From an uncultured Gammaproteobacteria bacterium (lineage in GTDB: Bacteria; Patescibacteriota; Microgenomatia; Levybacterales; UBA12049): 64,000 nucleotides of DNA. Below the pieces are notes generated by a model. The model made no database searches and was not told the DNA's origin. It was given only the letters and a program-made list of their open reading frames with translations. The DNA lies in assembly GCA_964416445.1 (NCBI GenBank), contig CAYQEE010000008.1, forward strand, positions 6,450 through 70,449, in the 5' to 3' direction. Position 1 is the stretch's first letter, and each line of letters opens with the position of its first letter. Positions 3,623 to 44,190 of the stretch are shown in pieces. The position numbers and the translations under genes are program-made.

Positions 3623-5734
3623 ATGGCTGATACAGCAACACAACGACATGCAGAGTTAGATAAAATTCGAAATATTGGCATTATTGCGCATATTGACGCT
3701 GGGAAAACAACCACGACTGAAAGAATCTTATTTTATACAGGAAAAACGTATAAAATTGGGGATATTGATGAAGGTAATACCCAAATGGATTGGATGGAAC
3801 AAGAAAAAGAACGAGGTATTACTATTGTTTCTGCTGCAACTACCGCATTTTGGAAAGGTTACCGTATTAATATTATTGATACTCCAGGGCACGTTGACTT
3901 TACTGCAGAAGTAGAACGATCACTTCGAGTTCTTGATGGTGGTATTACGGTTCTCGATGCAGAAGAAGGTGTGCAATCACAATCAGAGACCGTATGGCGA
4001 CAAGCTGATAAGTACAAGGTTCCTCGAGTTTGTTTCGTAAATAAAATGGATAAACTTGGTGCAGATTTCTTAGCTACGGTAAAAAGCATTGAAGATAGAT
4101 TAGGTGCAAATCCGGCAATTATGGTTCTTCCTATTGGTACTGAAAGTACCTATATTGGTAATGTCGATTTACTAACCAGAAAAGCATATAAATGGGGGCA
4201 AGATGAATTAGGAGCAAAGTTTGAAATAAGTGATGAAATACCGTCAGAAATGAAAGAACAGGTTGAAGAATACCGTCATAAACTTATTGAAAAAATTGCT
4301 GAAACTGATGATGCGATGCTTGAGAAGTATTTAGCAGGTGAAGAACCATCAGTTGAGGAACTTAAAAAAGCGTTACGAGCAGCTGTTATTGCATATAAAT
4401 TAGTTCCTATTTATGCTGGCTCATCACTTAGACATAAAGGAGTACAACCGTTACTTGATGCAGTGCTTGATTATTTACCTTCACCCGTTGACCTTGGTGC
4501 AGTAAAAGGTGAAAATCCAAAAACAAATATGGCTGAAGAAAGAAAACTTGTTCCTGAAGAAAAATTGTGTGGATTAGCTTTTAAAATTCAAATTGATCCT
4601 CACGTCGGAAAGTTAACCTACTTTCGAGTCTATTCAGGAAAAGTGCAATCTGGTTCATATATTTATAACAGCACTAAAAATACGACTGAACGTATTGGGC
4701 GAATCCTTTTAATGCATGCAAACAATCGAGAAGAAATTAAAGAAGCATTTGCTGGAGAAATCGTTGCGCTTGTTGGCTTAAAAGATACGATTACCGGAGA
4801 TACTTTATGCGATGAGAAAGCACCAATTGTTTTAGAAAAAATTACTTTTCCAGAACCAGTTATTTCTCTTGCTATCGAACCGAAAACAAAAATTGATCAA
4901 GAAAAACTTGGATTAGCATTGAAACGTTTAACTGAAGAGGATCCGACATTTCAAGTAAAAACGAATCATGAAACAGGGCAAACTATTATTTCTGGTATTG
5001 GCGAATTACAACTTGAAGTTATGGTAGACCGTATGAAAAGAGAATTTGGTGTTTTAGCAAATGTTGGCGCACCACAAGTAGCTTATAAGGAAACGGTTAA
5101 ATCAACAGCTGAAGCAGAAGGTAAATACATTCGTCAATCAGGAGGGCGTGGACAATATGGTCATTGTTATTTACGAATTGAACCAAAACCTCGCGGAGAA
5201 GGTTTCGAATTTGTTAACGCAATTAAAGGAGGAGCTATTCCTCAAGAGTTTATTATTTCTGTACAAAAAGGTGTCAAAGAATCAATCGAAAATGGAGTGC
5301 TCCTTGGATACCCTGTTGTTGATGTTCAAGTAACTTTATATGACGGATCCTATCATGATGTTGATTCTTCTGATGTAGCCTTTAAAATTGCTGCTTCAAT
5401 GGCGTTTCAAGCTGCTTCAAAAAAAGCAGACCTTACCTTGCTTGAACCAGTTATGTTAGTTGAAGTAACCACACCATCAGAATATATGGGAGATGTTATT
5501 GGAGATCTTTCAGCAAAACGAGCACAAATCATGGGTACCGAAGAACGATCTCGAGCAACCATTATTAAAGCAATGGTGCCATTAGCCGAATTGTCAGGGT
5601 ATGCAACAACACTTCGATCTATGTCAAAAGGTCGAGCTTCATATTATATGGAGCCATCTCACTATGAGGAAGTTCCAAATAATATTGTGCAACAAATGCT
5701 TGCAAAATCCACATTCACCGGAAGAGTTGAGTAA
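3623..5734 (+). CDS. fusA: elongation factor G
   Basis: 703 aa. [16 protein letters not shown]1 motif, DTPGHVDF, full EF-G domain order. Confidence 0.95.
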
Positions 5735-5803
5735 TTCTTTTTCAATACAAATTGTGAAATTTTTAGTTGAGTCTCGCTTGTCTATCAAGTATAATTAAGA
5801 ATA

Positions 5804-6982
5804 ATGGCAAGAAAAAAAATATCTGAATTTACTGCGAAGTCTCTCTTGTTTTCTCGTCTTGGTATACCATATACAGGAGTGTCTCTTATTGGTACTGATA
5901 CTGTTACTCCCTCAAACTTTGACAAAGATAAACTCTATGTTGTGAAAGTCGATGAAGGTGTTAAAGGAAGGATGAAAAAAGGATTAGTATCACTAAAGGT
6001 TCCTGCTACGGAGATACGAAATAAAATACAAGAATTGAGTGAAAAAGGATATCATCGATTTCTTGTCGAAGAATTTATTCCCCATGAAGCATTCCAAGAA
6101 AAATATTTTTCACTCGAAAGAACACGAGAAGGAATAACAATGTATTATTCTGATAAAGGAGGAATTGATATTGAATCTAACCAACAGACGGTTCAGAAGA
6201 CAATACTTGATAAAAGTACGACTGAATCAGTAACTTCTTTTTTAGGATTATCTCTTACTGCATTTCAAAAAATCATTACTGTTTTTAATGAACTCTATTT
6301 CTCTTTTCTTGAAGTTAATCCTCTTGTTATTACTGAAGACGCGATATATTTTTTAGATCTTGCTGTGGAGGTGGATAGTAGTGCGGAATTTTTTGTGAAA
6401 GATGGGTGGACAGCACTTGATTTTGTTGGGGATGAGCTTTTCGGCCAAAAAACAGAAGAAGAGAAAAATATTATTGCATTGAAAGCAAAAAGCCAAGCAG
6501 CATTTAAATTAGACATGCTTAATCCTCAAGGATCAATATGGATGTTATTATCAGGTGGAGGTGCAAGTATTGTCCTTGCTGATGAGGCATATAATCAAGG
6601 ACGAGGTACTGATGTTGCAAATTATGGAGAATATAGCGGTAATCCGAATCAAGAAGAAACATATATTTACACCAAAAATATTTTAAAGTTATTGCTAAAA
6701 TCACCGGCGCCAAAAAAAGTTTTAATTATTGGTGGCGGAGTTGCTAACTTTACTGATATTAAAACAACATTTGGAGGAGTCATCCGAGCTTTGGATGAAG
6801 TAAAAGATGATCTTGCAAAGCAACATGTCAAAGTATTTGTTCGTCGAGGAGGACCAAATCAGGAAGCAGGATTGCATGCAATGAAAATCTTTTTACAAAA
6901 TGCGCAAATTTTGGGAGGAGTATGGGATCCGTCACTCGTCTTGTCTGATGTTATAACAAAAGCGAAAGAGGAACTTTCGTAA
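5804..6982 (+). CDS. aclB: ATP-citrate lyase small (ATP-grasp) subunit
   Basis: 392 aa. N-terminus MARKKISEFTAKSLL matches the ACLY N-terminus (MSAKAISEQTGKELL). Segments KKVLIIGGGVANFTDIKTTFGGVIRAL and VFVRRGGPNQEAGL align to human ACLY residues in its N-terminal ATP-grasp part. Confidence 0.8.
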   Translation: MARKKISEFTAKSLLFSRLGIPYTGVSLIGTDTVTPSNFDKDKLYVVKVDEGVKGRMKKGLVSLKVPATEIRNKIQELSEKGYHRFLVEEFIPHEAFQEKYFSLERTREGITMYYSDKGGIDIESNQQTVQKTILDKSTTESVTSFLGLSLTAFQKIITVFNELYFSFLEVNPLVITEDAIYFLDLAVEVDSSAEFFVKDGWTALDFVGDELFGQKTEEEKNIIALKAKSQAAFKLDMLNPQGSIWMLLSGGGASIVLADEAYNQGRGTDVANYGEYSGNPNQEETYIYTKNILKLLLKSPAPKKVLIIGGGVANFTDIKTTFGGVIRALDEVKDDLAKQHVKVFVRRGGPNQEAGLHAMKIFLQNAQILGGVWDPSLVLSDVITKAKEELS

Positions 6983-6987
6983 TATAT

Positions 6988-8775
6988 ATGTTAGATATTG
7001 CATTATTAAGACAACAAAAAGAGTATCAGGTTATTGCAATTGGAAGCTATCCAACGGTAATTCAATCAGTTCTTGATTTTGATTATTTATCAGGAAAGGA
7101 AAAACCGAGTATTGTTGGAATCATTGCTGGAGGGAGAAAATCAGAGCGGTACTTTTTTGGTAAAAAGGAGATCCTCATTCCGGTATTTTCGGATGTTGCA
7201 GTAATTCCTGAAAAGTTTCGAAATGAAATAACGTTGTTTATTAACTTAACTTCCGGAAGACGAGTATTCGAAAGTTCTCTTAAAGCAATTGATACCTTTC
7301 CTCATCTGCTTGGAGGAACACTGTTTGCTGAAAATGTTCCAGAACTTCATAGTATCGAACTTTTTAAAAAAACAGAAGAAACAAATACCTTTATTGTGGG
7401 GCCTGCAAGTGTTGGACTCCTTCTTCCGAATGCTTTGAAACTTGGGGCAATTGGTGGTGTCGATATTCGACAGTTAGAGAGTGCCCATTTGTTTACGAAA
7501 GGAAATGTCGCAGTTTTTTCTTCCTCTGGAGGAATGACAAATGAGTTAATTAATATTGTGACGAGTTCCGGAAAACGAATATCTTTTGCGTTATCATTTG
7601 GTGGTGACCGGTTTCCCATTGTTAGTCCTATGGAAGCATTCTTGGCTGCTGAACGAGATCCGGAAACTGAACATATTATCTACTTTGGTGAATTAGGGGG
7701 ATATGATGAATACGAAATAGCACATGCACTAAAGGAAGGACGAATTACAAAACCAGTCATTTGTTATATCGCAGGGGTCATTTCAGATATGTTTCCCAAA
7801 CCTCCTCAATTTGGTCATGCCAAAGCAATGGCAGGGAAAAAAGAGGAAGGAGCAAAAGCAAAACGAAAAGCACTTTCCGATGCAGGAGCAATTGCTGCAG
7901 AATCTTTTGCTGCGTTTGTTGATACGATTGCTGCTTTGCAAGTGCCTCAGTTTGAAGAAAGAGACTTTCGTGGACAAATGCAAGAAATTGCAACGCGACA
8001 ACATGCGCTCATTGCATCAAGTATTTCGAAGGATGTTAGCGGAGAAGTACACATTTTAGGTGAAGAATTACTTTCTTTTACCAAAAATCATTCATTTGCA
8101 TCAAATGTTGCAGCCATGTTTCTTGGAAAGAATAACGTTACAAGCGAAACAGAAGCATTCATTGATTTTATTCTCCGACTATTAGTAGATCATGGACCAT
8201 ATGTATCAGGAGTAATGAATACTGTTGTTACTGCTCGTGCAGGAAAAGATCTTGTGGCATCCCTTGCGGCAGGATTACTAACCGTTGGTCCACGATTTGG
8301 TGGTGCAATAAATCAAGCAGCAGCAAATTGGTTGAAGGGAACTCAGGAAAAACAAGATGCATATGATTTTGTTGAAGCGTTTGCAAGTCGCAAACAATAT
8401 ATATCAGGTATTGGACATCGGAAATATCGCGTTGATTTTCCTGACCCTCGGGTCACCGAAATTCTTCAATTTAGTAATTCGTTGAAAAAAAAGCGGTTTA
8501 CTGATTTTGCTAAAGCTATTGAAAAAGTAACAGTTTCGAAAAAAGGTAATTTGATCTTGAATGTGGATGGAGCAATTGCAGCAGTATTGTTAGATATTCT
8601 TTCAGAAAAAGAAGAAATGGTTGATGCTCAGCTTCAACAACTTGTCGAAACCGAGTTCTTTAATGCATTATTTGTTTTATCTCGAAGCGTCGGATTTATT
8701 GCTCACTTTCTTGATCAAAAACGATTAGATGAAGGGCTTTTCCGTCTTACCGAAAACCAAGTTGCCGAAGCATAA
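6988..8775 (+). CDS. aclA: ATP-citrate lyase large subunit (CoA-binding / phosphohistidine domain fused to a citrate-synthase-like citryl-CoA lyase domain)
   Basis: 595 aa. PVICYIAGVISDMFPKPPQFGHAKAMAG matches the ACLY catalytic His loop. C-terminal LILNVDGAIAAVLLDIL and FVLSRSVGFIAHFLDQKRL match the citrate-synthase-like domain of ACLY. Gene order aclB-aclA as in Chlorobium. Confidence 0.8.
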   Translation: MLDIALLRQQKEYQVIAIGSYPTVIQSVLDFDYLSGKEKPSIVGIIAGGRKSERYFFGKKEILIPVFSDVAVIPEKFRNEITLFINLTSGRRVFESSLKAIDTFPHLLGGTLFAENVPELHSIELFKKTEETNTFIVGPASVGLLLPNALKLGAIGGVDIRQLESAHLFTKGNVAVFSSSGGMTNELINIVTSSGKRISFALSFGGDRFPIVSPMEAFLAAERDPETEHIIYFGELGGYDEYEIAHALKEGRITKPVICYIAGVISDMFPKPPQFGHAKAMAGKKEEGAKAKRKALSDAGAIAAESFAAFVDTIAALQVPQFEERDFRGQMQEIATRQHALIASSISKDVSGEVHILGEELLSFTKNHSFASNVAAMFLGKNNVTSETEAFIDFILRLLVDHGPYVSGVMNTVVTARAGKDLVASLAAGLLTVGPRFGGAINQAAANWLKGTQEKQDAYDFVEAFASRKQYISGIGHRKYRVDFPDPRVTEILQFSNSLKKKRFTDFAKAIEKVTVSKKGNLILNVDGAIAAVLLDILSEKEEMVDAQLQQLVETEFFNALFVLSRSVGFIAHFLDQKRLDEGLFRLTENQVAEA

Positions 8776-16612: not shown

Positions 16613-16622
16613 TGTGGAAAAT

Positions 16623-32848: not shown

Positions 32849-33436
32849 ATGAGTTATTTAATTCCTGGAAAAACGGTTTTTCGGTTTACAACAAAAGACC
32901 ATCAAGAAGCGGTAATTCGGTATCCTCGTTGGGAAGATCTTGACGCTTTACTTTCGTATATTAACGTACTTTCTGAAGAAGATATTTACCTTACTTTTTC
33001 AGGAGAGACAGTAACAAAAGAAGGAGAAATGTATTACCTTACGGAAACATTTAAATCAATCGAGCGAGGCGATATGGTAAATCTCTGTTGCTACATCAAT
33101 AATATCCTTGTTGGAACATGTACAATTTCTCGAGATGTACAATCAAGAAAAAGAAGTTATCATATCGGTATTTTTGGTATTACTGTTTCGAAACAGTTTC
33201 GTCGAAGTGGATTGGGCGAGCAACTTGCTCGGATTACAATCGCTGAAGCACAGCGCACTATTGTAGGACTGAAACTGCTTATTTTAAGTGTCTACAGTCC
33301 TAATATTGCTGCGCAAAGTTTATATAAAAAGCTGGGATTTAAAACTGCAGGAATCGTACCGAAAGGAGTATGGTATAAAGGTACTTATATAGATGAAATT
33401 AAAATGTATTTACCACTCCAAGAGTATATGTTATGA
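32849..33436 (+). CDS. GNAT family N-acetyltransferase
   Basis: FRRSGLGEQLARITIAEAQ acetyl-CoA binding motif A. 195 aa. Confidence 0.7.
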   Translation: MSYLIPGKTVFRFTTKDHQEAVIRYPRWEDLDALLSYINVLSEEDIYLTFSGETVTKEGEMYYLTETFKSIERGDMVNLCCYINNILVGTCTISRDVQSRKRSYHIGIFGITVSKQFRRSGLGEQLARITIAEAQRTIVGLKLLILSVYSPNIAAQSLYKKLGFKTAGIVPKGVWYKGTYIDEIKMYLPLQEYML

Positions 33437-34491
33437 ATACCAAACCTTCCTTATTTGAAACCTTAACTGCACATAAAGAAACAATTTTCCAATTTCTCAA
33501 ACAATATTTACATAAGGAAACAAACACATTCCGTCATGTGAATCATTGGAGTAATGATATTGAAACTCGACTTCTCACATTCCTGCAACAAGGGAAAATG
33601 ATTCGAGGTAGTCTTCTTTTCTATAGTACGCAGCTCTTTGGTGTAACTGACTCGGTAGAAAGTTTACCTGCTGCAGCAGCAATTGAACTTATTCACGCAT
33701 CATTACTGATTCATGATGATATTATGGATCGAGATTATCAACGTCGAGGAAAGCAAACTATTTTTGCACAGTATGAAACATTAGCAATGGAACAAAATTT
33801 ATCTGATTCGTTACATTTTGGAGAAAGCATGGGCATTTGTGTTGGGGATTATGCTATCTATCTTGCATATGGGTTACTTTCCCAAATGAACAAAAGTTCT
33901 CTAACACATCGAATTTCGCGTGAAATTGCTATGGTCGTACTCGCACAAATGCAAGATATAGTAAATGGATATGAGGTTATAGAACCGTCATCTGAAGCAA
34001 TCCTTCATCTCTACACATTTAAAACAGGACGGTATACGTTTGCTCTGCCATTACTTACTGCAGCATTACTTGCAGAAAAGCCGGAATTTGTGGAAGTATT
34101 GGAGAAAATTGGTGAATTACTCGGAAAAATATTCCAAATTAAAGATGACGAATTAAATTTATTTGGTGATGAACAGGTAACGGGAAAACCAACTGGTTCA
34201 GATCTTCGAGAGAATAAAAAAACATTCCATCGTCTCTTACTTCTTGAAAATGCAACCATACCTGAAAGGAAGGAAATTCTTAAGCGGCTAAATAGTAAAC
34301 AGATGAATGCGAATGATTTATCGTATCTTTACGACTTATTACATACCTATCAAATAAAAAAGGTAGTTCAAACAAAAATAGCACATATGACTCAAGAAGT
34401 GAAAACATTGATCAACGCATCCTTGCTTCCTCAATCAATAAAACAAATTCTTTTTGAACTCATTGTTTATAATGAAACGAGGGTAAAATAA
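33433..34491 (+). CDS. trans-polyprenyl diphosphate synthase (GGPP/FPP synthase family)
   Basis: First aspartate-rich motif LIHDDIMDRD and second KDDELN. 352 aa. Overlaps the upstream stop by 4 nt. Confidence 0.8.
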   Translation: MNTKPSLFETLTAHKETIFQFLKQYLHKETNTFRHVNHWSNDIETRLLTFLQQGKMIRGSLLFYSTQLFGVTDSVESLPAAAAIELIHASLLIHDDIMDRDYQRRGKQTIFAQYETLAMEQNLSDSLHFGESMGICVGDYAIYLAYGLLSQMNKSSLTHRISREIAMVVLAQMQDIVNGYEVIEPSSEAILHLYTFKTGRYTFALPLLTAALLAEKPEFVEVLEKIGELLGKIFQIKDDELNLFGDEQVTGKPTGSDLRENKKTFHRLLLLENATIPERKEILKRLNSKQMNANDLSYLYDLLHTYQIKKVVQTKIAHMTQEVKTLINASLLPQSIKQILFELIVYNETRVK

Positions 34492-35240
34492 TGATAAAAT
34501 CTACCGTTTTTGATAAATTTCCTCAGCTGAATAGTATTGCAAAAGAGAAATTTCCAAAACATATTCTTATTATTCCTGATGGAAATGGAAGATGGGCAAA
34601 AGCACAAAATAAATTTGTTACCGTAGGTCATAAAAAAGGCGCTGAAGTAGTAGAACAATTATTAGAAGATATTTCTGAAATTCATGAAATTTCAGCAGTA
34701 ACGGTATGGGGGTTTGCAGCGGATAATTGGAAACGGAGTAGTCAGGAAGTAAAAGGATTATTATTTCTTATTAATTCTGCTGTCAAAAGAACTCTCAGTA
34801 AATTACAAGCAAGAAACGGAAGATTTATTCATTTAGGGAGAAAAGATCGATTACCAAAAGAACTTTTGAAACTTTTTGAAAATGCAGAAGAAGAAACGAA
34901 AAATAACACAGGACAAATCTTGTGTCTTGCAATTGATTTTGGTGGAGAAGATCAAAATGTTCGTATGGTTGATAAAGCCCGTTTGTTACCATCTGATATT
35001 CAGACAACTACTGACTTATTGTGGGAATTGCGTGATGGAAACGGTATTGTGAAAGCAGCAGATTTAATCATACGGACTTCAGGAGAACGACGTACATCAG
35101 ATATAGGATGGTTAAATGGTTCTTCTTCTGAATTGTATTTTATAGATAAGTTATTTCCTGACATCACCACTGAAAATATTGTTGAAGCCCTTATTGATTT
35201 TTCGCAGAGAGAAAGACGATTCGGTGGGAGAAGCAAATAG
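34491..35240 (+). CDS. uppS: undecaprenyl diphosphate synthase (cis-prenyltransferase)
   Basis: HILIIPDGNGRWA signature and a cis-IPPS C-terminus (RERRFGG). Confidence 0.9.
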   Translation: MIKSTVFDKFPQLNSIAKEKFPKHILIIPDGNGRWAKAQNKFVTVGHKKGAEVVEQLLEDISEIHEISAVTVWGFAADNWKRSSQEVKGLLFLINSAVKRTLSKLQARNGRFIHLGRKDRLPKELLKLFENAEEETKNNTGQILCLAIDFGGEDQNVRMVDKARLLPSDIQTTTDLLWELRDGNGIVKAADLIIRTSGERRTSDIGWLNGSSSELYFIDKLFPDITTENIVEALIDFSQRERRFGGRSK

Positions 35241-35267
35241 CAACTCTTTCCATATTCATGGACATCG

Positions 35268-35585
35268 TTATTTTCTTCGAGATGCAACGAGAAAACTTCC
35301 AAGTAAATAAAAAAGTAATAGTTGCCAGAAAAGGATCGAAAGGAGGGTAGTACTCAGAAATATTGCGATGATTTCACGCTTAAATCCATACAGAGTGATA
35401 AGAACTGCAGCTAGTCTTCCAAAAACAAATAAAAGTAATAATCCAAGGAGTGGTGAAAAAATAACGGGAAAAAGAATCGGTTTTCTTGTTACTTCACGAA
35501 TTGAGGTGAATGGATGAAATGTTAGGCCAAGTAAGGTCTTTGTCCAAATATAGGCAATAAAAATAAAGAATGTTCGTTTTTTCAT
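35268..35585 (-). CDS. small membrane protein (possible anti-sigma component)
   Basis: 105 aa, three hydrophobic helices. Downstream of the ECF sigma factor gene on the same strand. Confidence 0.4.
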   Translation of the reverse strand: MKKRTFFIFIAYIWTKTLLGLTFHPFTSIREVTRKPILFPVIFSPLLGLLLLFVFGRLAAVLITLYGFKREIIAIFLSTTLLSILFWQLLLFYLLGSFLVASRRK

Positions 35586-35839
35586 TGGTACGTAAAGCGT
35601 AAAGGGAAAATTCCAAATCCACCAAAGATTCTGAGAATAATATCATCATAGCCCTTCCCAAAGGAAACATGGAAAATAATACTCAAAAGAAAGGCAAGCG
35701 GAATAAGGATACGCCATGGATGATTACCTAACCAGACACTTACCGTTGTAAAAACAGTAGGCATGACCATACCTTTCATGATTCGTTCCTGTTCAAAGGC
35801 CCGGTCTTGAAGCTTATGTAAGAATTCACGCTCGTTCAT
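35582..35839 (-). CDS. small membrane protein, anti-sigma-factor-like
   Basis: Start chosen at an internal Met so the overlap with the sigma gene is short. One TM helix. Immediately downstream of the sigma gene. Confidence 0.4.
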   Translation of the reverse strand: MNEREFLHKLQDRAFEQERIMKGMVMPTVFTTVSVWLGNHPWRILIPLAFLLSIIFHVSFGKGYDDIILRIFGGFGIFPLRFTYQ

Positions 35840-36359
35840 AGGCTTTTTTAAAAGATTGTCTTGCTCGAAAGAGCATACTTTCAGTTGCTTTAAAGGAAAG
35901 ATGAAAAATTGGAGCAAGATCTTTAACGGGAATTTTCTCTTCATAATGGAGCTGTAATATTCGACGATAATCAGTAGATATGCTTTTTAATGCAAGTTCA
36001 ATTCGATCTCTTACTTTATTTTTCTCATATTGGAATTCTGGTTGATGGATCTCATTTGCAACAATTTCTAAAAAAGGAGCTTGAGATAAAAGGATAGATT
36101 TGATTTTTTTCTTTCGATAAAAATCAACAACTTTATTATGAGCTATCGAATAGAGCCATGATCCAAGTTTTTGTTCTTTTTTTAAGAGAAGTAATGAGTC
36201 AACAGCCTCAAAAAATACCTCATTGAGGATATCTTCTGCATCTTCTTTTCGTGGCAACTTTTGCATGAGATATGTCATAATTTGAGGAGAATACTGATGG
36301 TAGAAGGTGATGACCGCTTGACGATCTCCTTGACAAATTTGTTCTATGAGTGACGTCAT
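35826..36359 (-). CDS. ECF-type sigma-70 family RNA polymerase sigma factor
   Basis: Region 2 (VVDFYRKKK) and region 4 (YRRILQLHYEEKIPVKDLAPIFHLSFKATESMLFRARQSFKK). 177 aa. Confidence 0.8.
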   Translation of the reverse strand: MTSLIEQICQGDRQAVITFYHQYSPQIMTYLMQKLPRKEDAEDILNEVFFEAVDSLLLLKKEQKLGSWLYSIAHNKVVDFYRKKKIKSILLSQAPFLEIVANEIHQPEFQYEKNKVRDRIELALKSISTDYRRILQLHYEEKIPVKDLAPIFHLSFKATESMLFRARQSFKKAYERA

Positions 36360-36456
36360 AAGGTTATTATATCAGTCATAGAACAAATTTGAAAATGAAA
36401 AATACGGTAAAACGAATGATTTTGAAGGAATTTACGACTATATAGTAAAGATTATT

Positions 36457-37623
36457 ATGGCAATTACGTTGCGTGACTACCATTTAGCCTCAAAAAGGAG
36501 AGGAGCTCTCGAAAAAGAACTCAATATTACCTTACCCCAAATTGGCAATTTTACTCTCGATGAGGATTATGCATCAACCCATAATTGTGAAAACATGATT
36601 GGAAGTATTCAAGTTCCTCTCGGTGTAGCAGGTCCGTTGAAAATAAAGGACAAAAACATGCAACAAGATTTCTTTTTGCCTTTAGCAACTACAGAAGGAG
36701 CACTCGTTGCATCAGTAGCAAGAGGTTGTAAAGCAATTACTGAAAGTGGTGGTACGCATGTAACAAGTAAACGGGTAGGAATAACTCGTGCACCTGTTTT
36801 TTCAGTCTCTGATATTGCACAGGCAACAGAATTTATAACATGGGTGAAAAGCCACACACAAATCATGAAAGAAATTGCTGAACAAACATCGCACCATCTT
36901 ACTTTGCTTTCCGTTCGCCCTTGGCATATAGGACAGAATGTTTTTTTACGTTTTCAATTTGATACGCATGATGCAATGGGAATGAACATGGCAACAATCG
37001 CGGTATCACGAGTGGTAACTTGGATTGAAGAGCAAACGCGAATTATGTGTAGTGCCCTGTCAGGTAATATGTGTGTTGATAAAAAACCAAATTTTCTTAA
37101 TTTTATTGAAGGACGCGGAATCCAAATATGGGCAGATGTCATCATTCCTGAATCTATTATCTCATCAGTTTTAAAAACAGATAAAAAAAGACTTGTAAAA
37201 ACGGCAAAACAAAAATTGCTCTTTGGATCAATTCTTTCTGGATCAATTGGAGCAAATGCACATGCTGCAAATGTTCTTGCAGCATTATTTCTTGCTACAG
37301 GACAAGATATAGCACACATAGCTGAATGTAGCATGGTTGTTACTGAACTCGAAGAAGTAGCTCAGGGAATGTATGCTTCCGTTTATCTTCCTGATTTAGT
37401 AATTGGAACTGTTGGTGGAGGAACAAATCTTTCGACACAAAAAGAAGCATTAACAATACTTGGTATTCACGGTGGAGATAGCGGAAAAAATGCGATACAA
37501 TTAGCTCAAGTGTTTGGTGCGGCAGTGCTTGCCGGTGAAATTTCATTACTCTCTGCTCTTGCAAGTAATCATTTAGCGTACGCACATCAACAACTTGGCC
37601 GAGGAGGGAAAACGAATACATAA
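36457..37623 (+). CDS. HMG-CoA reductase (class I-like)
   Basis: DAMGMNM motif and ENMIGSIQVPLGVAGPL (ENVIG-type) motif. 388 aa. Confidence 0.85.
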   Translation: MAITLRDYHLASKRRGALEKELNITLPQIGNFTLDEDYASTHNCENMIGSIQVPLGVAGPLKIKDKNMQQDFFLPLATTEGALVASVARGCKAITESGGTHVTSKRVGITRAPVFSVSDIAQATEFITWVKSHTQIMKEIAEQTSHHLTLLSVRPWHIGQNVFLRFQFDTHDAMGMNMATIAVSRVVTWIEEQTRIMCSALSGNMCVDKKPNFLNFIEGRGIQIWADVIIPESIISSVLKTDKKRLVKTAKQKLLFGSILSGSIGANAHAANVLAALFLATGQDIAHIAECSMVVTELEEVAQGMYASVYLPDLVIGTVGGGTNLSTQKEALTILGIHGGDSGKNAIQLAQVFGAAVLAGEISLLSALASNHLAYAHQQLGRGGKTNT

Positions 37624-37627
37624 TTTT

Positions 37628-38668
37628 ATGACTGGCATTGTTGGATATGGGGCATATATTCCCCGATATCGGTTATCGTTATCAGATATTGCGGATATCT
37701 GGCAAAAAGATCCAAATGAAGTAATTCATGGTCTTCATGTGAAGGAAAAAGCAGTTCCAGCTTCCGATGAGGATGCAGTAACATTAGGTATTGAAGCAGG
37801 AAAACGATCGTTTACTATGGCAGGTATTTCCCCTGAATCAGTAGGAAGTGTTTTTTTTGGATCAGAAAGTCATCCCTATGCTGTCAATCCCTCGTCGACT
37901 ATTGTCGCTGAGTTTTTAGGTATTGGTCATCATTATTTTGCGGCTGATCTTGAATTTGCCTGTAAGGCGGCAACAGCAGGCCTGCAAGTGACTGTAGGCT
38001 TATTGGATAGTAATAAAATTAACTACGGGCTTGTCATTGGAAGTGACACTGCTCAAGGAAAGCCACATGACGCATTAGAATATACCGCAGCAAGTGCAGC
38101 TGTTGCAATGCTTTTGAGTAATAAATCGGAAGAAGTTCTTGCAAAGATACTTGAAATGTCTTCATATACTTCTGACACGCCAGATTTTTGGAGAAGAGAT
38201 GGTGCACGATATCCTTCACATTTCGGGAGGTTTACTGGAGAGCCTGCGTATTTTACTCACGTCATTAATGAAGGAAGAAAGCTTTTAGAACAAAGTCAAT
38301 TGCAACCACAAGATTTTACCTATTGTGTTTTTCATATGCCAAATGGAAAATTTCCTCGTATAGCAGCCAAAAAGTTAGGTTTTACACCGGAACAATTAGC
38401 ACCATCACTTACCGTTGATAAAATTGGTAATCCTTATTCTGCTTCAGCGATGCTTGGATTGGCAGCAGTTCTTGATATTGCAAAACCAGGAGAAAAAATA
38501 TTCTTTGTTTCCTATGGATCAGGTGCCGGTTCAGATGGTTTTATTTTTCAGACTACCGAACATATTACGAAAAAACAAATAATTGGTACGAATGTGCAAC
38601 AACAAATTGAACAGAAACAATATATAACGTACGCGCAATATCTTAAATATACGCATACAATTGGATAA
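37628..38668 (+). CDS. HMG-CoA synthase, archaeal type
   Basis: MTGIVGYGAYIPRYRL N-terminus typical of archaeal HMGCS. Thiolase-fold Cys region. Immediately followed by thiolase and DUF35 genes. Confidence 0.8.
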   Translation: MTGIVGYGAYIPRYRLSLSDIADIWQKDPNEVIHGLHVKEKAVPASDEDAVTLGIEAGKRSFTMAGISPESVGSVFFGSESHPYAVNPSSTIVAEFLGIGHHYFAADLEFACKAATAGLQVTVGLLDSNKINYGLVIGSDTAQGKPHDALEYTAASAAVAMLLSNKSEEVLAKILEMSSYTSDTPDFWRRDGARYPSHFGRFTGEPAYFTHVINEGRKLLEQSQLQPQDFTYCVFHMPNGKFPRIAAKKLGFTPEQLAPSLTVDKIGNPYSASAMLGLAAVLDIAKPGEKIFFVSYGSGAGSDGFIFQTTEHITKKQIIGTNVQQQIEQKQYITYAQYLKYTHTIG

Positions 38669-38669
38669 T

Positions 38670-39824
38670 ATGATGAAAGTAGGAATCTTAGGCGGAGCAA
38701 CAACAAAATTCGGTGAATTATGGGGAATTTCTCCTCGTACGTTGGCACGAGAAGCGTTAACAAGCGCATTAGAGTCATCGCAATTGCAGGCAGAGGCAAT
38801 TGATGCCTTGTATGTGGGCAATATGTTAGGTGGCATTTTAGGCAACCAGACAAATCTTGGTTCGTTCTATGCTGAAGAATTAGGTGTCTATGTTCCGGCA
38901 TTTCGTTTGGAAGGAGCATGTGCTTCAGGTGGACTAGCATTACATGCAGCAGTGAACAGTATCCTTTCTGGACAAAATGAGGTCGTTATGGTATTAGGCA
39001 TAGAAAAAATGACTGATCATAACAGTGATGAAGTGACAAACGGATTGATGGCAGCAGGTTCTGATGAGGAACGGACTGCTGGGGCAACTTTTCCCGGACT
39101 CTATGCACTTATGGCCCAAGCATATATGCAACAATATGCGATTCGCGAAGAATCACTTGCCGCAGTATCTGTCAAAAATCATTTTCATGGTAGCTTGAAT
39201 CCGATAGCGCAGTTTCAATCTCCGATCACAATTGAATCGGTAATGCGGAGTGCAAAGATAGCAGATCCCATTAAATTGTTAGATAGTTCTCCTATTTCAG
39301 ATGGTGCGGCGGCGATTGTTCTTACGAGTGAAGACTATGCAAAAAAAAATTACCCAAAACCCGTTTTTATTACAGCGAGTGAAGTAGCAACGGATAGTCT
39401 TGGATTACAAGACAGAGAAACATTAGTCAGTTTATCAGCAGTAGTTCGTGCATCGCAAAAAGCATATAAAAGTGCTGGGGTGTCAGCAAAAGATATTGAT
39501 GTTGCTGAAATTCATGATTGTTTCTCGATCGCAGAAGCAATTGCGAACGAAGATCTTGGATTTTCAGAACGTGGCGCAGGAGCAACGGATACCGAAAAAG
39601 GAATGCGAACGTTATTTCAAGGAACCGTTATTACTAATCCTTCGGGTGGATTGAAAGCATGTGGTCATCCAGTAGGAGCAACAGGGATAAAACAAATTGT
39701 TGAAATAACAAAACAACTTCGAGGCGAAGCTGAGAAACGGCAAGTAGAAGGTGCGAAAATAGGATTAACTCACAATGTTGGAGGGAGTGGCGCAGTTGCG
39801 GCAATTCATATTTTACAAATTTAA
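38670..39824 (+). CDS. acetyl-CoA acetyltransferase (thiolase), archaeal type
   Basis: MMKVGILGGATTKFGELW N-terminus, GACASGG active-site region, C-terminal HNVGGSGA. Confidence 0.8.
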   Translation: MMKVGILGGATTKFGELWGISPRTLAREALTSALESSQLQAEAIDALYVGNMLGGILGNQTNLGSFYAEELGVYVPAFRLEGACASGGLALHAAVNSILSGQNEVVMVLGIEKMTDHNSDEVTNGLMAAGSDEERTAGATFPGLYALMAQAYMQQYAIREESLAAVSVKNHFHGSLNPIAQFQSPITIESVMRSAKIADPIKLLDSSPISDGAAAIVLTSEDYAKKNYPKPVFITASEVATDSLGLQDRETLVSLSAVVRASQKAYKSAGVSAKDIDVAEIHDCFSIAEAIANEDLGFSERGAGATDTEKGMRTLFQGTVITNPSGGLKACGHPVGATGIKQIVEITKQLRGEAEKRQVEGAKIGLTHNVGGSGAVAAIHILQI

Positions 39825-39827
39825 TTT

Positions 39828-40130
39828 ATGCATACATCACCAGTAAAATTGTGGAGAAGACAAAAGACGGTAGCGAACGTAATTGGTAAAAGAGGAAAAC
39901 TTTTGCATTGGACGATTATTCGAGTTCCTTCGAAATCATTCGCTCACCAAGCTCCTTATCCAGTGGTGATTGTAACATTTCCTGAAGGTACGAATATGAT
40001 TGGACAATTAGTTGATTGGCAAAAAGAAGACTTAGTAAAAGGAAGAGACGTTGTTGCTGTGCTTCGAAAGCACCAAGGTGATGATAAAGAAGGTGTTATC
40101 CCATATATCATTAAATTTAAACCTGCATGA
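39828..40130 (+). CDS. DUF35 OB-fold protein (scaffold of the thiolase/HMG-CoA synthase complex)
   Basis: 100 aa, immediately downstream of the thiolase. This size and position match the archaeal thiolase-HMGCS-DUF35 arrangement. Confidence 0.6.
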   Translation: MHTSPVKLWRRQKTVANVIGKRGKLLHWTIIRVPSKSFAHQAPYPVVIVTFPEGTNMIGQLVDWQKEDLVKGRDVVAVLRKHQGDDKEGVIPYIIKFKPA

Positions 40131-41191
40131 ACGCAATAACCGTTTCTGCACCAGGAAAATTACATCTCCTTGGCGAACATAGTGTTGTCTATGGAAAACC
40201 AGCAATTATCGCAGCGGTTAATAGACGATGCATCGCCTCTCTTTTACCTCATAAGTCAGCAACTATTGTTCTATCTGCCAATACGCAATTGCTCGGAACA
40301 ATATCGTACGAGGAGGTGCAACGAAAAACAAGACAAGCAAATCTTCAATGGAAACGGTTCTCGGAAACGAATAATCCCAAAATTCTCAATGATATTATTC
40401 AAAATCCTTGTGATTTCATGAGTCTCTGTATTGGGGAAACATTGAGCTTCTATCATCGAACGCTTCCATCAGGATTTGTGCTCTCGATTTCCTCGACTAT
40501 ACCGTTAGGTTCTGGAATGGGATCATCATCAGCTGTTGCTGTATCTATTGCCGGAGCAGTGAGCCTTTTTCTTAAAGAATCGTTGGATAAAGTGTGTATC
40601 AATAGCATTGCTTATGCAATTGAGGAAAAAAAACATGGTTTTCCCTCAGGAGGCGATAATACTGCGAGTTGTTATGGTGGCTGTATATGGTATCAAAAAA
40701 TGGCACCGAATAAAAAGAATATATCGCAACTTACTATTCGTTTCTCTGAAAAAATCGCGAAAAAGTTTATCATTATCCAAACAGGAATTCCTGAAGAATC
40801 TACCGGGGAAATGGTGAGTATGGTGAAAACAGCATATCAGCAAAATCCAAGTCGGATTGAAGCAATTTTCAATCATCAAGCAGAACTTGTTAAGCAATTG
40901 CCGAAAGCAATACACGAGAATAATGAAGAAGCCTTTATGCACATTATCAAGGAAGGTGAAAAAAATCTTACACAGTTGGGTGTCGTTTCTGAATCAACCC
41001 GAAAACTGATACAAAGAATAGAGGCAATACAGGGTGTTGCAAAAATATGTGGTGCAGGTGGATATAAACATGCCTCTGGAATTGTTCTTGCATTTCATTC
41101 CCAATTAGAAGTCCTGACAACGATGCTTAAGCAAAATAATATCGCATATTCACCAATTCATTTAGGAGAAGAAGGGCTACGTCAAGAGTAA
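40127..41191 (+). CDS. mevalonate kinase (GHMP kinase)
   Basis: SAPGKLHLLGEHSVVYG N-terminal MVK signature. GHMP ATP loop PLGSGMGSSSA. C-terminal CGAGGYKH. Confidence 0.75.
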   Translation: MNAITVSAPGKLHLLGEHSVVYGKPAIIAAVNRRCIASLLPHKSATIVLSANTQLLGTISYEEVQRKTRQANLQWKRFSETNNPKILNDIIQNPCDFMSLCIGETLSFYHRTLPSGFVLSISSTIPLGSGMGSSSAVAVSIAGAVSLFLKESLDKVCINSIAYAIEEKKHGFPSGGDNTASCYGGCIWYQKMAPNKKNISQLTIRFSEKIAKKFIIIQTGIPEESTGEMVSMVKTAYQQNPSRIEAIFNHQAELVKQLPKAIHENNEEAFMHIIKEGEKNLTQLGVVSESTRKLIQRIEAIQGVAKICGAGGYKHASGIVLAFHSQLEVLTTMLKQNNIAYSPIHLGEEGLRQE

Positions 41192-41251
41192 CTTCGCGAA
41201 AATACTAAATCTGGAAATGAAATGAGAGGAGATGTTTCGTACCTTTTAAAA

Positions 41252-43099
41252 TTACTGCGTAATGGGAAGTAAACTAAAGCGAATGTGTGAATTACCTTGT
41301 CCATAAGGAACCTCTGGCCACATGAGAGGAATGATATTATTAGAAACCATTAGTGGTAATTGAATCATAGAACCATCTGGAAAATTCCAGAAGCATCGAT
41401 TTGTTGGCGCTGTGGTGTATGGTGTCGTTACCCGGGCACGAATATAGTAGTAGCTTCCTGGAGCATTCGTTGTATCAAGTACAGTTTGTTGCCAATCAGA
41501 GGGAGGAGTAAACATGAGTCCATAACCATACGCTCGGTTACTTGTAAAATTAGGATTATATGAACTTTCTGGATTTGAGAGTGGTGCCCAAGCTGTTCCA
41601 TTCCAATATTCATAAACGACTGTTCCTCCCACACCTGCTGTTTGCATAATTCCGGTAATTGCTCGATATGGTTGTGTTCCTCCAAAGTAAATTACGTCAT
41701 TACTCTTTGACACTATAGGTGTTGTGATTGCACAAGTCAGTGCAGTCTGATCAACGTAAGCACTGGTACTCCCGGATTGTGTGTAGATTCTGTTAAATAA
41801 ACCATCTTCTGGGTTGACGAGCTTTGGGGAAGAAAAATTGTTAGCTGCAAATGGTGGTGTACCGATTCGATATGCGTATGTGCCAAGAGCAGTTGAACTG
41901 AATCCCATTCCTTGTACAGGAGGACAGTTACTGCCAAAACATATTTGGTGCGCATTTGCAGACACCGGTCTACTCCCATAAAATACATAGACATTAGTTC
42001 CATCAGTAGTAATGGATGGATAAGCATTTGCAAGAATTCCACCATCCATGTTTACTTGTGAACTCCAATTACTCGTTGACGAATTGTAATACATATATTG
42101 AATTTGAGATCCAGAACTTTCTCCTGTCAAACTAAAGACGAAATGGACATTTCCCGCATTATCTGCTACCGCTTGAAAATCAGGGTCAATATTTTGCGTC
42201 GTGGTAATTTGACTTTCGGAACTCCAAGTATTTGGATCATCAGTATCATTTCGGTATCTCCATACAAATGCTGGGGTAGATGTTGAATAAATTATCCCAA
42301 TTTTATTGCCAAAATGAACAATAACGGGAATACTTGCAAGAGAGCTCGTTGCAGGTTGTGAAGATAATGTCATACTATGCGTCCATGTCGGTGTGGAAGT
42401 GAGATCAGAAGCGTAGTATGCATCTGCAGTAATTGTATTATTAGTCTTATTTGTTGTTTGTACTGCCATCCAAAGTCTATTAGCACTATCAATTGAAAGT
42501 ACTGCTTGCGCATAACCTATTTGGCCTTGAATATAGGGAAGAGCAACTTGTTCTGGACCAATAGTCCATGTTGATCCTGTTTTTGTTAATTTTCTAAATG
42601 CTACTCCTGTAGCCTGATAGTTGAGGAGAGAATACACGAGGTAAATATTGTCGCTACTATCAATTACAGCTGAGGGAAACGTATATGCGCCTTGTAAAAG
42701 ACTTTGTATGTACCCACTACATTGCCAGGTTGTTCCATTATTTGTCGAAGTGAACCACATCAATCCATTCAGTTGCCCTTTTGGAGCTGCAGGACAATTA
42801 TTATTGACTGCATAGGTTTGAACGAAGGTATGTAATGTACCATCAGATGTTTGAATGAGATCTCGGTTATTGATTTGACCAATGCCCTGATGTCCTGCTG
42901 ATTGGGCAACGTTAATTAATGTATTTGAAGATGCTTGTACCGGTTTTGTTTTAATGATACTGAGAATAAGGCCGACAGCAATGATACTACAAATGCCAAT
43001 TGAAGTGAAAAGTACGATTAAATGTTTCTGAATTCCCCATGGTGATTTATTTCCTTTAATCTTCTTTACTTTTTTTGCTTTCCTCGCCATACACTCCAA
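41252..43099 (-). CDS. secreted BNR/Asp-box-like beta-propeller protein
   Basis: N-terminal basic region plus a TM anchor. Several S.(D/N).G.TW-like Asp-box motifs (STNNGTTWQ, TKTGSTWT). 615 aa. Confidence 0.45.
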   Translation of the reverse strand: MECMARKAKKVKKIKGNKSPWGIQKHLIVLFTSIGICSIIAVGLILSIIKTKPVQASSNTLINVAQSAGHQGIGQINNRDLIQTSDGTLHTFVQTYAVNNNCPAAPKGQLNGLMWFTSTNNGTTWQCSGYIQSLLQGAYTFPSAVIDSSDNIYLVYSLLNYQATGVAFRKLTKTGSTWTIGPEQVALPYIQGQIGYAQAVLSIDSANRLWMAVQTTNKTNNTITADAYYASDLTSTPTWTHSMTLSSQPATSSLASIPVIVHFGNKIGIIYSTSTPAFVWRYRNDTDDPNTWSSESQITTTQNIDPDFQAVADNAGNVHFVFSLTGESSGSQIQYMYYNSSTSNWSSQVNMDGGILANAYPSITTDGTNVYVFYGSRPVSANAHQICFGSNCPPVQGMGFSSTALGTYAYRIGTPPFAANNFSSPKLVNPEDGLFNRIYTQSGSTSAYVDQTALTCAITTPIVSKSNDVIYFGGTQPYRAITGIMQTAGVGGTVVYEYWNGTAWAPLSNPESSYNPNFTSNRAYGYGLMFTPPSDWQQTVLDTTNAPGSYYYIRARVTTPYTTAPTNRCFWNFPDGSMIQLPLMVSNNIIPLMWPEVPYGQGNSHIRFSLLPITQ

Positions 43100-43212
43100 A
43101 TATATAGGTTTTTATTGATTAAGTCAATAAATACTTTCACGAGAAGTACGCTTATACTATATATAGTATTGACAGAGAAACGACTTGTTTGAGAGAATGA
43201 GGAAAAGTTAAC

Positions 43213-44190
43213 ATGAAAGGTATTACCATTTCAGCTCCAGGGAAATTAATGTTGCTTGGAGAACATGCCGTTGTTTATGAACGGCCCTGTCTCGTTACTG
43301 CTGTCGATCAACGAATGTATGCAAAGGTTGAAATGATCGATACTCCAGAATTACAAATCGAAGCAAATGATGTCCACGTTTCAGGATATAGCAAATCATT
43401 CATTGAATTAGGTAAAGGAGATGTCCCAAAAGGAGCAAAGTTTATCGAATATGCTTTGAAAAATATGATTGATAAATATCAATTTAAAACAGGGTATAAA
43501 ATAACAACAAGATCAGAGTTTTCTTCACAATTTGGTTTTGGTTCATCTTCAGCTGCAACCGTTTGTACTATTTATGCAATTTCAGAATTACAGGAACTTC
43601 ACTTAACTCCTCGTGATGTTTTTGATATTGCCTATAAAACGGTGTTAGATGTACAAGGAAAAGGTTCAGGTTTTGATGTTGCTGCCGCTGTATATGGGGG
43701 AACACTTCATTTTGTCACTGGGGGAGAACTCATTGAACAACTTGGTATAAAAAATCTCCCTGTGATTGTTGGATATAGTGGTATAAAGGCAGACACCGTA
43801 ACGCTCATGAATCAAGTAAAAGCAAAAGCTGATAAATATCCCGAAGTGATTGAAGAAATTTATAATGATATTGAAGATATCGTTATGTTTGCAAAAGAAT
43901 CATTACTTGACAATACCTGGCAGTCGCTTGGTGAGCTTATGAATTTTAATCAAGGTTACTTAGAAGCATTAGGGGTGAGCACCAAAAAATTAGCTACTAT
44001 GATTTATGCAGCGCGTGATGCAGGGGCCTATGGAGCGAAACTTTCAGGAGCTGGTGGGGGAGATTGTATTATTGTTGTTGCACCTGAAGATAAAAAAGAA
44101 GCTGTGAGTACTGCCATCACTGAAGTAGGAGGAGAAGTTATTCCCGTAAAAACAAATGCTCAAGGCGTTAGAATAGAACCAAGTGAATAA
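43213..44190 (+). CDS. second mevalonate-kinase-like GHMP kinase (candidate phosphomevalonate kinase function)
   Basis: SAPGKLMLLGEHAVVYE, GFGSSSAATV, KLSGAGGGDCIIV, all MVK-like motifs. Confidence 0.7.
   Translation: MKGITISAPGKLMLLGEHAVVYERPCLVTAVDQRMYAKVEMIDTPELQIEANDVHVSGYSKSFIELGKGDVPKGAKFIEYALKNMIDKYQFKTGYKITTRSEFSSQFGFGSSSAATVCTIYAISELQELHLTPRDVFDIAYKTVLDVQGKGSGFDVAAAVYGGTLHFVTGGELIEQLGIKNLPVIVGYSGIKADTVTLMNQVKAKADKYPEVIEEIYNDIEDIVMFAKESLLDNTWQSLGELMNFNQGYLEALGVSTKKLATMIYAARDAGAYGAKLSGAGGGDCIIVVAPEDKKEAVSTAITEVGGEVIPVKTNAQGVRIEPSE

Follow-up and report, generated by a model that had tools for sequence, protein, structure and literature searches.

A predicted two-subunit ATP-citrate lyase in a Levybacteria-type genome, and what its conserved gene neighbours suggest about its role

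What would a bacterium with a reduced genome do with an ATP-citrate lyase (ACL)? The question is raised by a pair of genes, aclB and aclA (together aclBA), at positions 5804-8775 of a 64-kb stretch of DNA from an uncultured bacterium (64,000 nucleotides of contig CAYQEE010000008.1), which we call the window. An earlier reading of the stretch, made from its letters without database searches (the sequence-only reading), had named the pair an ACL and had connected it with a mevalonate (MVA) locus farther downstream. Our analysis confirmed the predicted identity of aclB-aclA as a two-subunit ATP-citrate lyase (EC 2.3.3.8), on the evidence of domains, alignment scores and conserved residues. The connection with mevalonate fared less well, and below we discuss how the conserved neighbours of aclBA point instead to a broader use of acetyl-CoA. 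The two genes and their parts are as follows.

5804..6982, plus strand: aclB, ACL small subunit, 392 aa (open reading frame (ORF), Pfam and PDB match)
5810-6409, plus strand: ATP-grasp domain of aclB, about residues 3-202 (Pfam PF24948)
6449-6964, plus strand: citrate-binding domain of aclB, about residues 216-387 (Pfam PF16114)
6731-6760, plus strand: ANFT motif of aclB (translation)
6988..8775, plus strand: aclA, ACL large subunit, 595 aa (ORF, Pfam and PDB match)
6988-7941, plus strand: CoA-binding/ligase module of aclA, resembling the alpha subunit of succinyl-CoA synthetase (SCS), about residues 1-318 (Pfam Ligase_CoA)
7813..7836, plus strand: phospho-histidine loop GHAKAMAG (translation QFGHAKAMAGK, 7807-7839)
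7816-7818, plus strand: codon of the catalytic His277 of aclA (aligned to human H760)
7975-8772, plus strand: citryl-CoA-lyase (citrate-synthase-like) module of aclA, about residues 330-595 (Pfam Citrate_synt)
8563..8571, plus strand: NVDG motif in the lyase module of aclA (translation ILNVDGAI)
8566-8568, plus strand: codon of Asp527 of aclA (equivalent to human D1026)

Both genes are intact and co-oriented, with a gap of 5 nt between them. The small subunit has the two parts of an ACL small subunit, for PF24948 (Citrate_synth_N), the ATP-grasp domain of the ATP-citrate synthases, scores 101 bits (cut-off 83) and PF16114, the domain that binds citrate in ACL, 185 bits. In the product of aclA we find the Ligase_CoA and Succ_CoA_lig domains of an SCS-alpha-like ligase module, whose phospho-histidine lies in a loop of the GHAG type, and a C-terminally fused citryl-CoA-lyase module, recognised as the citrate-synthase C-terminal domain Citrate_synt (residues 333-586, 94.6 bits) and retaining the catalytic His, His, Asp and Arg residues.

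Both subunits were ranked by phmmer against all PDB chains. The large subunit aligned end to end with human ACL (ACLY), residues 15-587 against 499-1086 (349 bits, E = 4e-103), and it scored 328 bits against ACLY-B of Methanosaeta concilii and 218 bits against AclA of Chlorobium limicola. The corresponding values outside the ACLs were about 80 bits for SCS-alpha, 77 for the small subunit of citryl-CoA synthetase (CCS), 69 for citryl-CoA lyase (CCL) and no more than 41 for citrate synthase. For the small subunit, human ACLY gave 222 bits (E = 1e-65), M. concilii 195 and C. limicola 134, versus 55 bits for the CCS large subunit and 28 for SCS-beta. Characterised ACLs thus matched both subunits better than SCS, CCS, CCL and citrate synthase did; ACL structures outscored SCS, CCS and CCL 3- to 8-fold, and chance would not give matches of this strength.

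Residue by residue, aclA is 35% identical to human ACLY across 570 aligned columns. The pairwise map places human H760 on H277, H900 on H402, H975 on H477, R976 on R478, D1026 on D527, R1065 on R566 and R1085 on R586, and all seven of these aclA residues (H277 and the lyase residues H402, H477, R478, D527, R566 and R586) were invariant in 16 diverse homologues from the candidate phyla radiation (CPR). In aclB, the PDB alignment matched the ATP-grasp residues K58, N203 and D216 of the human enzyme to K48, N172 and D185, and the citrate-site residues G309, N346, T348 and R379 to G279, N315, T317 and R348; the roles of these residues are those that we take them to have in the human ACLY structures. 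The sequence-only reading had rested its case for a true ACL rather than an SCS on the alignment of both genes with human ACLY, the GHAKAMAG loop and the citrate-synthase-like C-terminal domain, and each of these observations held.

Could the pair nonetheless be a mis-assigned SCS, or a CCS/CCL system? Close homologues are publicly labelled 'succinyl-CoA synthetase alpha subunit', 'citrate/2-methylcitrate synthase' or 'hypothetical protein', a preprint places some CPR sequences with CCS/CCL (10.1101/2022.10.25.513756), and in an early-branching lineage of the same family the large subunit is split into CCS-like and CCL-like genes. The window's lyase module, however, is no separate polypeptide; it is fused to the CoA-ligase module, and one 595-aa ORF covers both, unlike an SCS alpha subunit of some 290 aa that has no citrate-synthase-like domain. 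The NCBIfam models for SCS were also far from satisfied, with 58 bits for SucC (cut-off 375) and 109 bits for SucD (cut-off 336). Together with the 3- to 8-fold score difference, these results effectively refute the mis-assignment.

The split form deserves description in its own right. AclA is divided at the ligase/lyase boundary on four independent metagenome contigs (L044:9947-11824, L050:2453-4249, L061:9998-11848 and L066:3504-5426), where an N part of 310-327 aa ends at a stop and is followed, after a spacer of 24-189 nt, by a new ATG and a C part of 264-285 aa. The result is a natural three-gene layout like that of CCS/CCL. The four split AclAs form one clade (48/50 bootstraps) that branches early in the CPR ACL family, and the split is absent outside that separate lineage. 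Directly upstream of the N part, L061 and L066 carry an unrelated gene coding for about 380 aa.

To which organism does the window belong, and how common is its ACL? Homologues of its elongation factor G (EF-G) that bear names are mostly from Levybacteria (83-86% identity), those of its HMG-CoA reductase are named Levybacteria, Roizmanbacteria and Saccharimonadales, and a Levybacteria contig has the matching gene order rpoC-S12-S7...PPIase...EF-G-x-aclB-aclA...EF-Tu-S10. Because of these homologue names and the common gene order, the host is, as far as its genes tell, a Levybacteria-type member of the Microgenomates (CPR/Patescibacteria). The gene for ribosomal protein L30 is missing from its canonical place, S5 ending at 57326 and L15 starting at 57331, which bears out the earlier description of a CPR-like reduced genome lacking L30.

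That description had gone with the statement that ACL is rare in bacteria outside autotrophs using the reductive tricarboxylic acid (rTCA) cycle, and for CPR our results disagreed. A collection clustered at 90% contained 2,567 AclA homologues at E<=1e-20; the best 120 of the 2,567 were 60-71% identical to the window's protein, and those of them that bear a name are assigned to Levybacteria, Saccharimonadales or 'Patescibacteria group'. JGI metagenomes, scanned by pattern, added at least 581 confirmed AclA relatives. The public labels of AclA homologues conflict (SCS alpha, citrate/2-methylcitrate synthase, hypothetical, ACL), and this conflicting annotation may explain why ACL has been thought rare in CPR.

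We built a neighbour-joining (NJ) tree of full-length representatives taken from an exhaustive 50%-cluster search. A core CPR clade received 100% bootstrap support and a wider CPR clade 85%. Just outside stood further two-subunit forms, among them one of a DPANN archaeon (Norongarragalinales). A large group followed that combines human ACLY with numerous fused proteins of some 1,000 aa, and the ACL of Chlorobiaceae took an outgroup-like position relative to the CPR, DPANN and eukaryote-like sequences. Below the CPR clade the nodes had bootstraps of 20-69%, and because of these low values we make no claim about the sister group, including any sister relationship of CPR and eukaryotes. The tree, a check that the sequence-only reading had proposed, placed the window's enzyme in a CPR ACL clade, with low support at deep nodes; neither outcome that the reading had named as fatal, a placement with SCS or CCS or a missing lyase domain, was observed.

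In essentially every related locus with upstream sequence, aclB lay immediately upstream of aclA, mostly with a 4-nt overlap, and the fusA-aclBA...tuf synteny is common to the window and other Levybacteria. By tree and synteny, aclBA was shown to be a member of a CPR-specific ACL clade at a conserved chromosomal position in Levybacteria. What is new here is that ACL, judged by homologue counts, clade support and gene order, is widespread and vertically inherited in CPR.

Homologues of another kind were found on viral contigs. ACL homologues at 30-35% identity occur on 14 contigs of a viral collection (L092-L105, IMG/VR), nine of them labelled GVMAG (giant-virus metagenome-assembled genomes, MAGs). 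A 102-kb metagenome contig with 24% GC and 94% ORF coverage carries a fused 1,015-aa ACL (L090:8744-11791) and seems to be of viral or other non-eukaryotic origin; many of the roughly 1,000-aa fused proteins in the representative search may be similar in origin. Scans of viral contigs found no aclA of the CPR type.

How is the pair set in its own genome? The window runs from the 3' end of rpoC through S12, S7, a gene without assignment, a cyclophilin gene on the minus strand and the EF-G gene to aclB and aclA; about 37 kb of mixed genes follow, and then come EF-Tu, S10 and the ribosomal-protein operon. A protein identical to AclA was present on contigs from four separate sequencing runs. Because assemblies of four independent runs contain the same AclA, the arrangement is no assembly chimera. 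Two features lie immediately upstream of aclB.

3623..5734, plus strand: fusA (EF-G), upstream neighbour of aclBA (ORF)
5767..5795, plus strand: promoter-like site TTGAGT-17-TATAAT, 10/12 matches (consensus scan)

The promoter-like site, the best of the region, ends 8 nt ahead of the start codon of aclB, with no Shine-Dalgarno sequence in between. For aclA, a Shine-Dalgarno-like GAGGA stands at 6968-6972, 15 nt ahead of its ATG. These observations weakly suggest that aclBA has its own promoter, separate from that of fusA, and a leader that is very short or absent (leaderless or near-leaderless transcription); promoter-like sites as a class showed no excess in the region, 12 being observed versus 17.4 expected from shuffling. 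A terminator scan found none from fusA to aclB and none after aclA, and tRNA and Rfam scans of the 64-kb window gave no matches.

What, then, is the acetyl-CoA for? The sequence-only reading had pointed to a mevalonate locus on the same stretch and had proposed a parallel to eukaryotes, in which citrate, perhaps host-derived, is cleaved to supply acetyl-CoA, as in the eukaryotic ACLY-to-mevalonate axis. The locus is indeed there.

33433..45216, plus strand with a few minus-strand genes interspersed: mevalonate and prenyl-synthase region (Pfam)
36457: HMG-CoA reductase (Pfam)
37595: HMG-CoA synthase (Pfam)
38661: archaeal-type thiolase (Pfam)
39828: DUF35 OB protein (Pfam)
40127: mevalonate kinase (Pfam)
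43213: second GHMP kinase (Pfam)
44239: diphosphomevalonate decarboxylase (Pfam)

The mevalonate cluster is complete (about 36.4-45.2 kb), is preceded by a polyprenyl synthase and an undecaprenyl-diphosphate (UPP) synthase, and lies 27 kb downstream of aclBA, close to the earlier estimate of 25 kb. At 37595-40130 an archaeal-type trio of HMG-CoA synthase, thiolase and DUF35 OB-fold protein sits beside a class-I-like HMG-CoA reductase, in agreement with the account of CPR by Hoshino and Gaucher 2018 (PMC6107057), who found the pathway in most Microgenomates, with an archaeal-type thiolase and in synteny with prenyl synthases.

In its strict form this reading has host-derived citrate cleaved specifically to feed mevalonate synthesis, and several facts speak for a supply dedicated to this pathway. 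ACL and a complete cluster with its polyprenyl and UPP synthases share a contig; three acetyl-CoA are used per isopentenyl diphosphate, by established biochemistry; most Microgenomates have the pathway (PMC6107057); and a MAG survey reported Saccharimonadia to be enriched in terpenoid functions as well as in aclAB (PMC12577380). A supply of this kind leads one to look for a conserved association of the two gene sets, and we searched for it in 86 related loci, taking at most 10 kb to either side of aclBA (984 kb in total). By blastp of window proteins against the ORFs of these loci, AclA was found in 86 and AclB in 66, whereas nine MVA and prenyl-synthase proteins of the window gave zero matches. 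A tblastn search of the unannotated DNA with these nine proteins gave no match at E<=1e-3 either. In Levybacteria relatives, fusA and tuf enclose some 10 kb, with aclBA and no MVA genes inside. Among the matches listed, homologues of ACL and of HMG-CoA reductase shared only the window's own contig; since the matches listed for EF-G and for HMG-CoA reductase (lists of at most 120) had no contig in common either, this comparison has little or no power.

Because MVA genes are lacking near aclBA in relatives, the 27-kb proximity in the window is not a conserved linkage, and despite the shared contig the proposed connection drew no backing from the loci compared. In the literature searched, we did not find an explicit coupling of ACL and MVA stated for CPR. 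With the conserved neighbours of aclBA also pointing elsewhere, we consider a mevalonate-specific supply rather unlikely. It is plausible that the route from mevalonate to undecaprenyl, the lipid carrier of peptidoglycan synthesis, is an additional sink for acetyl-CoA, one that the data do not single out.

The conserved neighbours were examined next to aclBA itself. In the subclade whose members are 58-63% identical to the window, EF-G lies upstream in eight loci and the window by neighbour clustering (seven by blastp), and MurB lies directly or nearly directly downstream in 13 loci. EF-G beside aclBA was confined to this closest subclade in the blastp comparison of the 86 loci. Several co-directional arrangements recur beside aclBA, and of those listed here all except aclB>aclA>MurB were seen in the more divergent CPR subclades (47-56% identity).

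Acyl_transf_3>aclB>aclA>NTP-transferase>GlmS
aclB>aclA>GlmM>GNAT
GlmM>GNAT>aclB>aclA
GNAT>aclB>aclA (6 loci)
aclB>aclA>MurB
Ddl>aclB>aclA

The GlmM neighbour scored above its NCBIfam equivalog cut-off, and RmlA, RmlCD, GalE and glycosyltransferases are found nearby in the divergent subclades. We defined a core set (MurB, GlmS, GlmM, NTP-transferase, GNAT, Acyl_transf_3 and Ddl) after the clusters had been seen. Its members made up 24.6% of genes at distance 1 from aclBA, 13.1% at distance 2 and about 2% at distances 5-12 (Fisher odds ratio 11, p = 5e-12), and 31/69 loci had a core-set neighbour within two genes. Because the set had been chosen with the clusters in view, the enrichment was repeated as a Pfam census with no prior choice of families. 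Among 150 genes at distance 1-2 this census counted MurB 10 times, Acyl_transf_3 nine, GNAT eight, NTP_transferase six, SIS/GlmS five, RmlD five and PGM_PMM three. The control census of 150 genes at distance 6-10 was topped by NUDIX with four members, and MurB, Acyl_transf_3 and GNAT were not in its top 25 families, a list that reaches down to families of two members.

A further neighbour bears on acetyl-CoA directly. In L006:6619-12797 (a 1.61-Mb contig, OZ246394.1) and L008:6600-12797 (a 143-kb contig), tdh, kbl, aclB, aclA and murB form an operon-like block. NCBIfam assigns tdh as L-threonine 3-dehydrogenase and kbl as glycine C-acetyltransferase, so that a route from threonine to glycine and acetyl-CoA adjoins ACL. 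The class I/II aminotransferase-type gene upstream in these two loci had been considered as an oxaloacetate-using aspartate aminotransferase; this was rejected, since NCBIfam identifies it as Kbl with threonine dehydrogenase alongside. Because a second acetyl-CoA-producing route stands beside ACL, the cleavage direction is favoured. We concluded that the conserved context of aclBA consists of cell-envelope and acetyltransferase genes and tdh-kbl, and not of mevalonate genes, which is also new here.

From this context we think it reasonably probable that AclBA is a general supplier of acetyl-CoA, made probably from scavenged citrate, that would serve mainly cell-envelope synthesis, with mevalonate as one sink. 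The conserved residues suggest how the reaction might proceed. The ATP-grasp domain of AclB and the His277 loop of AclA would use ATP to form phospho-His277; citrate bound by AclB would be converted to citryl-phosphate and then to citryl-CoA; and the C-terminal lyase module of AclA (H402, H477, D527) would cleave citryl-CoA to acetyl-CoA and oxaloacetate. Comparative gene context suggests that acetyl-CoA would thereby be supplied in organisms that have no TCA cycle. The main sinks would be N-acetylation on the route to UDP-GlcNAc and UDP-MurNAc and acetylations by GNAT or Acyl_transf_3 enzymes; the path from mevalonate to undecaprenyl-phosphate would be a further sink, not a specific partner. 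We infer operation in the cleavage direction, as an acetyl-CoA source, because aclBA is placed in operon-like fashion with GNAT/Acyl_transf_3 genes, with genes for hexosamine and peptidoglycan precursors, and with tdh-kbl. The citrate most likely comes from the host or the environment, because CPR generally have no TCA cycle (literature, e.g. PMC6851277).

Several points weigh against assigning this role to the pair. The direction of flux is itself a deduction from gene placement. The loci are phylogenetically non-independent and the core set was post hoc, so the p-value overstates the significance, and the Pfam census with its distance control offsets this problem only in part. Small CPR genomes in any case devote a large part of their genes to the cell wall. 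GNAT neighbours gave generic matches only; the best PDB match was 3fb3/3i3g at 45 bits, with 3t90 also matched (E = 1.5e-3). We take 3fb3/3i3g to be the glucosamine-6-phosphate N-acetyltransferase of T. brucei and 3t90 to be plant GNA1, which is suggestive only. No citrate transporter was found in the 64-kb window, whose MFS protein is EntS-like, or among the recurrent neighbours of aclBA. Lastly, the window's own aclBA has no adjacent MurB, GlmS or GNAT; its neighbours are EF-G, a weak PgeF-like gene and genes without assignment, with PIG-L deacetylase-family genes farther off.

8938-9840, minus strand: PgeF/YfiH-like gene (peptidoglycan editing factor family), weak, 26 bits
14450-15100, plus strand: PIG-L gene (GlcNAc-deacetylase family)
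16539-17744, plus strand: PIG-L gene (GlcNAc-deacetylase family)

The PgeF-like and PIG-L genes have cell-envelope or acetyl-group functions, yet differ from the neighbours seen in relatives.

Should the reaction be read the other way? Run in reverse, ACL would be an ATP-conserving citrate synthase (acetyl-CoA + oxaloacetate + ADP + Pi to citrate + ATP + CoA), giving ATP by substrate-level phosphorylation or citrate for biosynthesis. Such a reverse reaction has reportedly been described in Desulfobacter postgatei, by Moller, Schauder, Fuchs and Thauer in 1987. The reaction is near equilibrium (established biochemistry), CPR are fermenters in need of substrate-level phosphorylation, and the lack of a citrate transporter in the window and among the recurrent neighbours would also suit this direction. 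The neighbours do not: aclBA clusters with consumers of acetyl-CoA (GNAT, Acyl_transf_3) and with another producer (tdh-kbl), rather than with aconitase, isocitrate dehydrogenase (IDH) or enzymes that form oxaloacetate, and the stoichiometric supply of oxaloacetate that the reverse reaction would require is not evident. We therefore give reverse operation a slim chance.

Autotrophic CO2 fixation by the rTCA cycle, as in Chlorobi, Nitrospirae and Campylobacterota, comes to mind because ACL is the textbook marker of that cycle and is often scored so in metagenome surveys (PMC9386943, PMC10811913). It is very improbable for this host, which is a reduced CPR genome without L30. No other rTCA enzyme was found in the 64-kb window or among the top neighbour families that recur beside aclBA, the enzymes looked for being 2-oxoglutarate:ferredoxin oxidoreductase, fumarate reductase, aconitase, IDH and pyruvate:ferredoxin oxidoreductase (PFOR). 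The CPR clade is, moreover, far from the ACL of Chlorobiaceae, both in the NJ tree and in score (218 vs 349 bits). Because ACL is used as an rTCA marker and its CPR homologues are labelled in conflicting ways, surveys may miscount autotrophs and under-detect ACL in CPR.

Returning to a general supply of acetyl-CoA from citrate, its interest lies in the economy of these organisms. CPR bacteria are without most of central metabolism, and what their hosts supply is largely unknown. A widespread and conserved ACL suggests that citrate and, by way of tdh-kbl, threonine may rank among the main sources of acetyl-CoA in CPR. The neighbouring genes connect this acetyl-CoA with the synthesis of peptidoglycan and amino sugars, which makes for a concrete hypothesis. 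A bolder form of it, which we offer tentatively and regard as doubtful, is that a vertically inherited ACL peculiar to CPR would, across much of that radiation (Microgenomates, Saccharimonadia and others), be the hub of a module leading from citrate through acetyl-CoA to the envelope (N-acetylation of UDP-GlcNAc/MurNAc, O-acetylation and the isoprenoid carrier lipid); host citrate would then be a key commodity of episymbiosis, and the lineage with split AclA a living intermediate on the way to the origin of ACL.

Other features of the window stood out independently of aclBA. Between S10 and L3, within the ribosomal-protein operon, stands an inserted ORF of 392 aa (47941-49119) that starts with GTG and matches no Pfam family; at this position the relatives among Levybacteria carry another gene, which encodes a NUDIX hydrolase and lies on the minus strand. 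A 1,235-aa ORF without a Pfam match (20776-24483) coincides with a composition anomaly at 22001-24000 (AT skew +0.28, GC skew -0.10), GC skew being positive almost everywhere else. Two ORFs, at 27773-30163 on the minus strand and 10638-12650 on the plus strand, probably encode proteins that are secreted or exposed at the surface. A GH79 C-terminal domain is combined with a dockerin type I domain in one of them, and a PKD domain with beta-propeller-like repeats in the other. One would not expect dockerin domains in CPR.

How does the pair compare with known systems? ACL in CPR and the idea of citrate scavenging are both already published: in 2019 Sieber et al. (mBio, PMC6851277) reported a closed CPR Gracilibacterium genome with an ACL of two subunits and proposed that this enzyme cleaves external citrate to acetyl-CoA and oxaloacetate. 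More recently, a 2025 groundwater study found Saccharimonadia MAGs to be enriched in aclAB (PMC12577380). With these ACL and MVA reports (PMC6851277, PMC6107057), both halves of an ACL-mevalonate story were known separately. The Gracilibacterium enzyme resembles ours in being encoded by two genes in a member of the CPR that has no TCA cycle; its annotation relied on a hidden Markov model and on a His loop of the GHAGA type (PMC6851277). The authors described this ACL as 'rarely detected in CPR' and suggested that it had come from archaea by lateral transfer; the window's ACL, in a comparison made by description only, differs from that account in belonging to a large supported CPR clade and in its Levybacteria synteny.

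Among solved structures, human ACLY (PDB 6hxh, 6poe, 3mwd) is the best-scoring relative (349 and 222 bits). It shares with the window's enzyme the order of modules, the phospho-His loop, and the residues of the citrate site and the lyase module, and differs in being one chain of about 1,100 aa with a regulatory linker, where the window has 392 + 595 aa at about 35% identity. ACLY-A/B of Methanosaeta (Methanothrix) concilii (PDB 6hxi, 6znw) is a two-subunit prokaryotic ACL and ranks second (328 and 195 bits); it is archaeal, and its subunits are slightly longer than the window's. In the NJ tree the window's clade stands apart from the group containing human ACLY, which also holds the Methanosaeta-sized sequences P0146 and P0137, a match of these to M. 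concilii not being established. AclA/AclB of Chlorobium limicola (PDB 6hxj) has the same heteromeric architecture and aclB-aclA order, although it is much more distant (218 and 134 bits) and acts in the autotrophic rTCA cycle. Finally, CCS and CCL of Hydrogenobacter thermophilus (PDB 6hxq, 6hxp) have homologous modules and carry out the same two half-reactions, as separate enzymes at 77, 55 and 69 bits, whereas the window's lyase module is fused; a split layout like theirs is also found in L044, L050, L061 and L066, the early-branching lineage of the CPR family.

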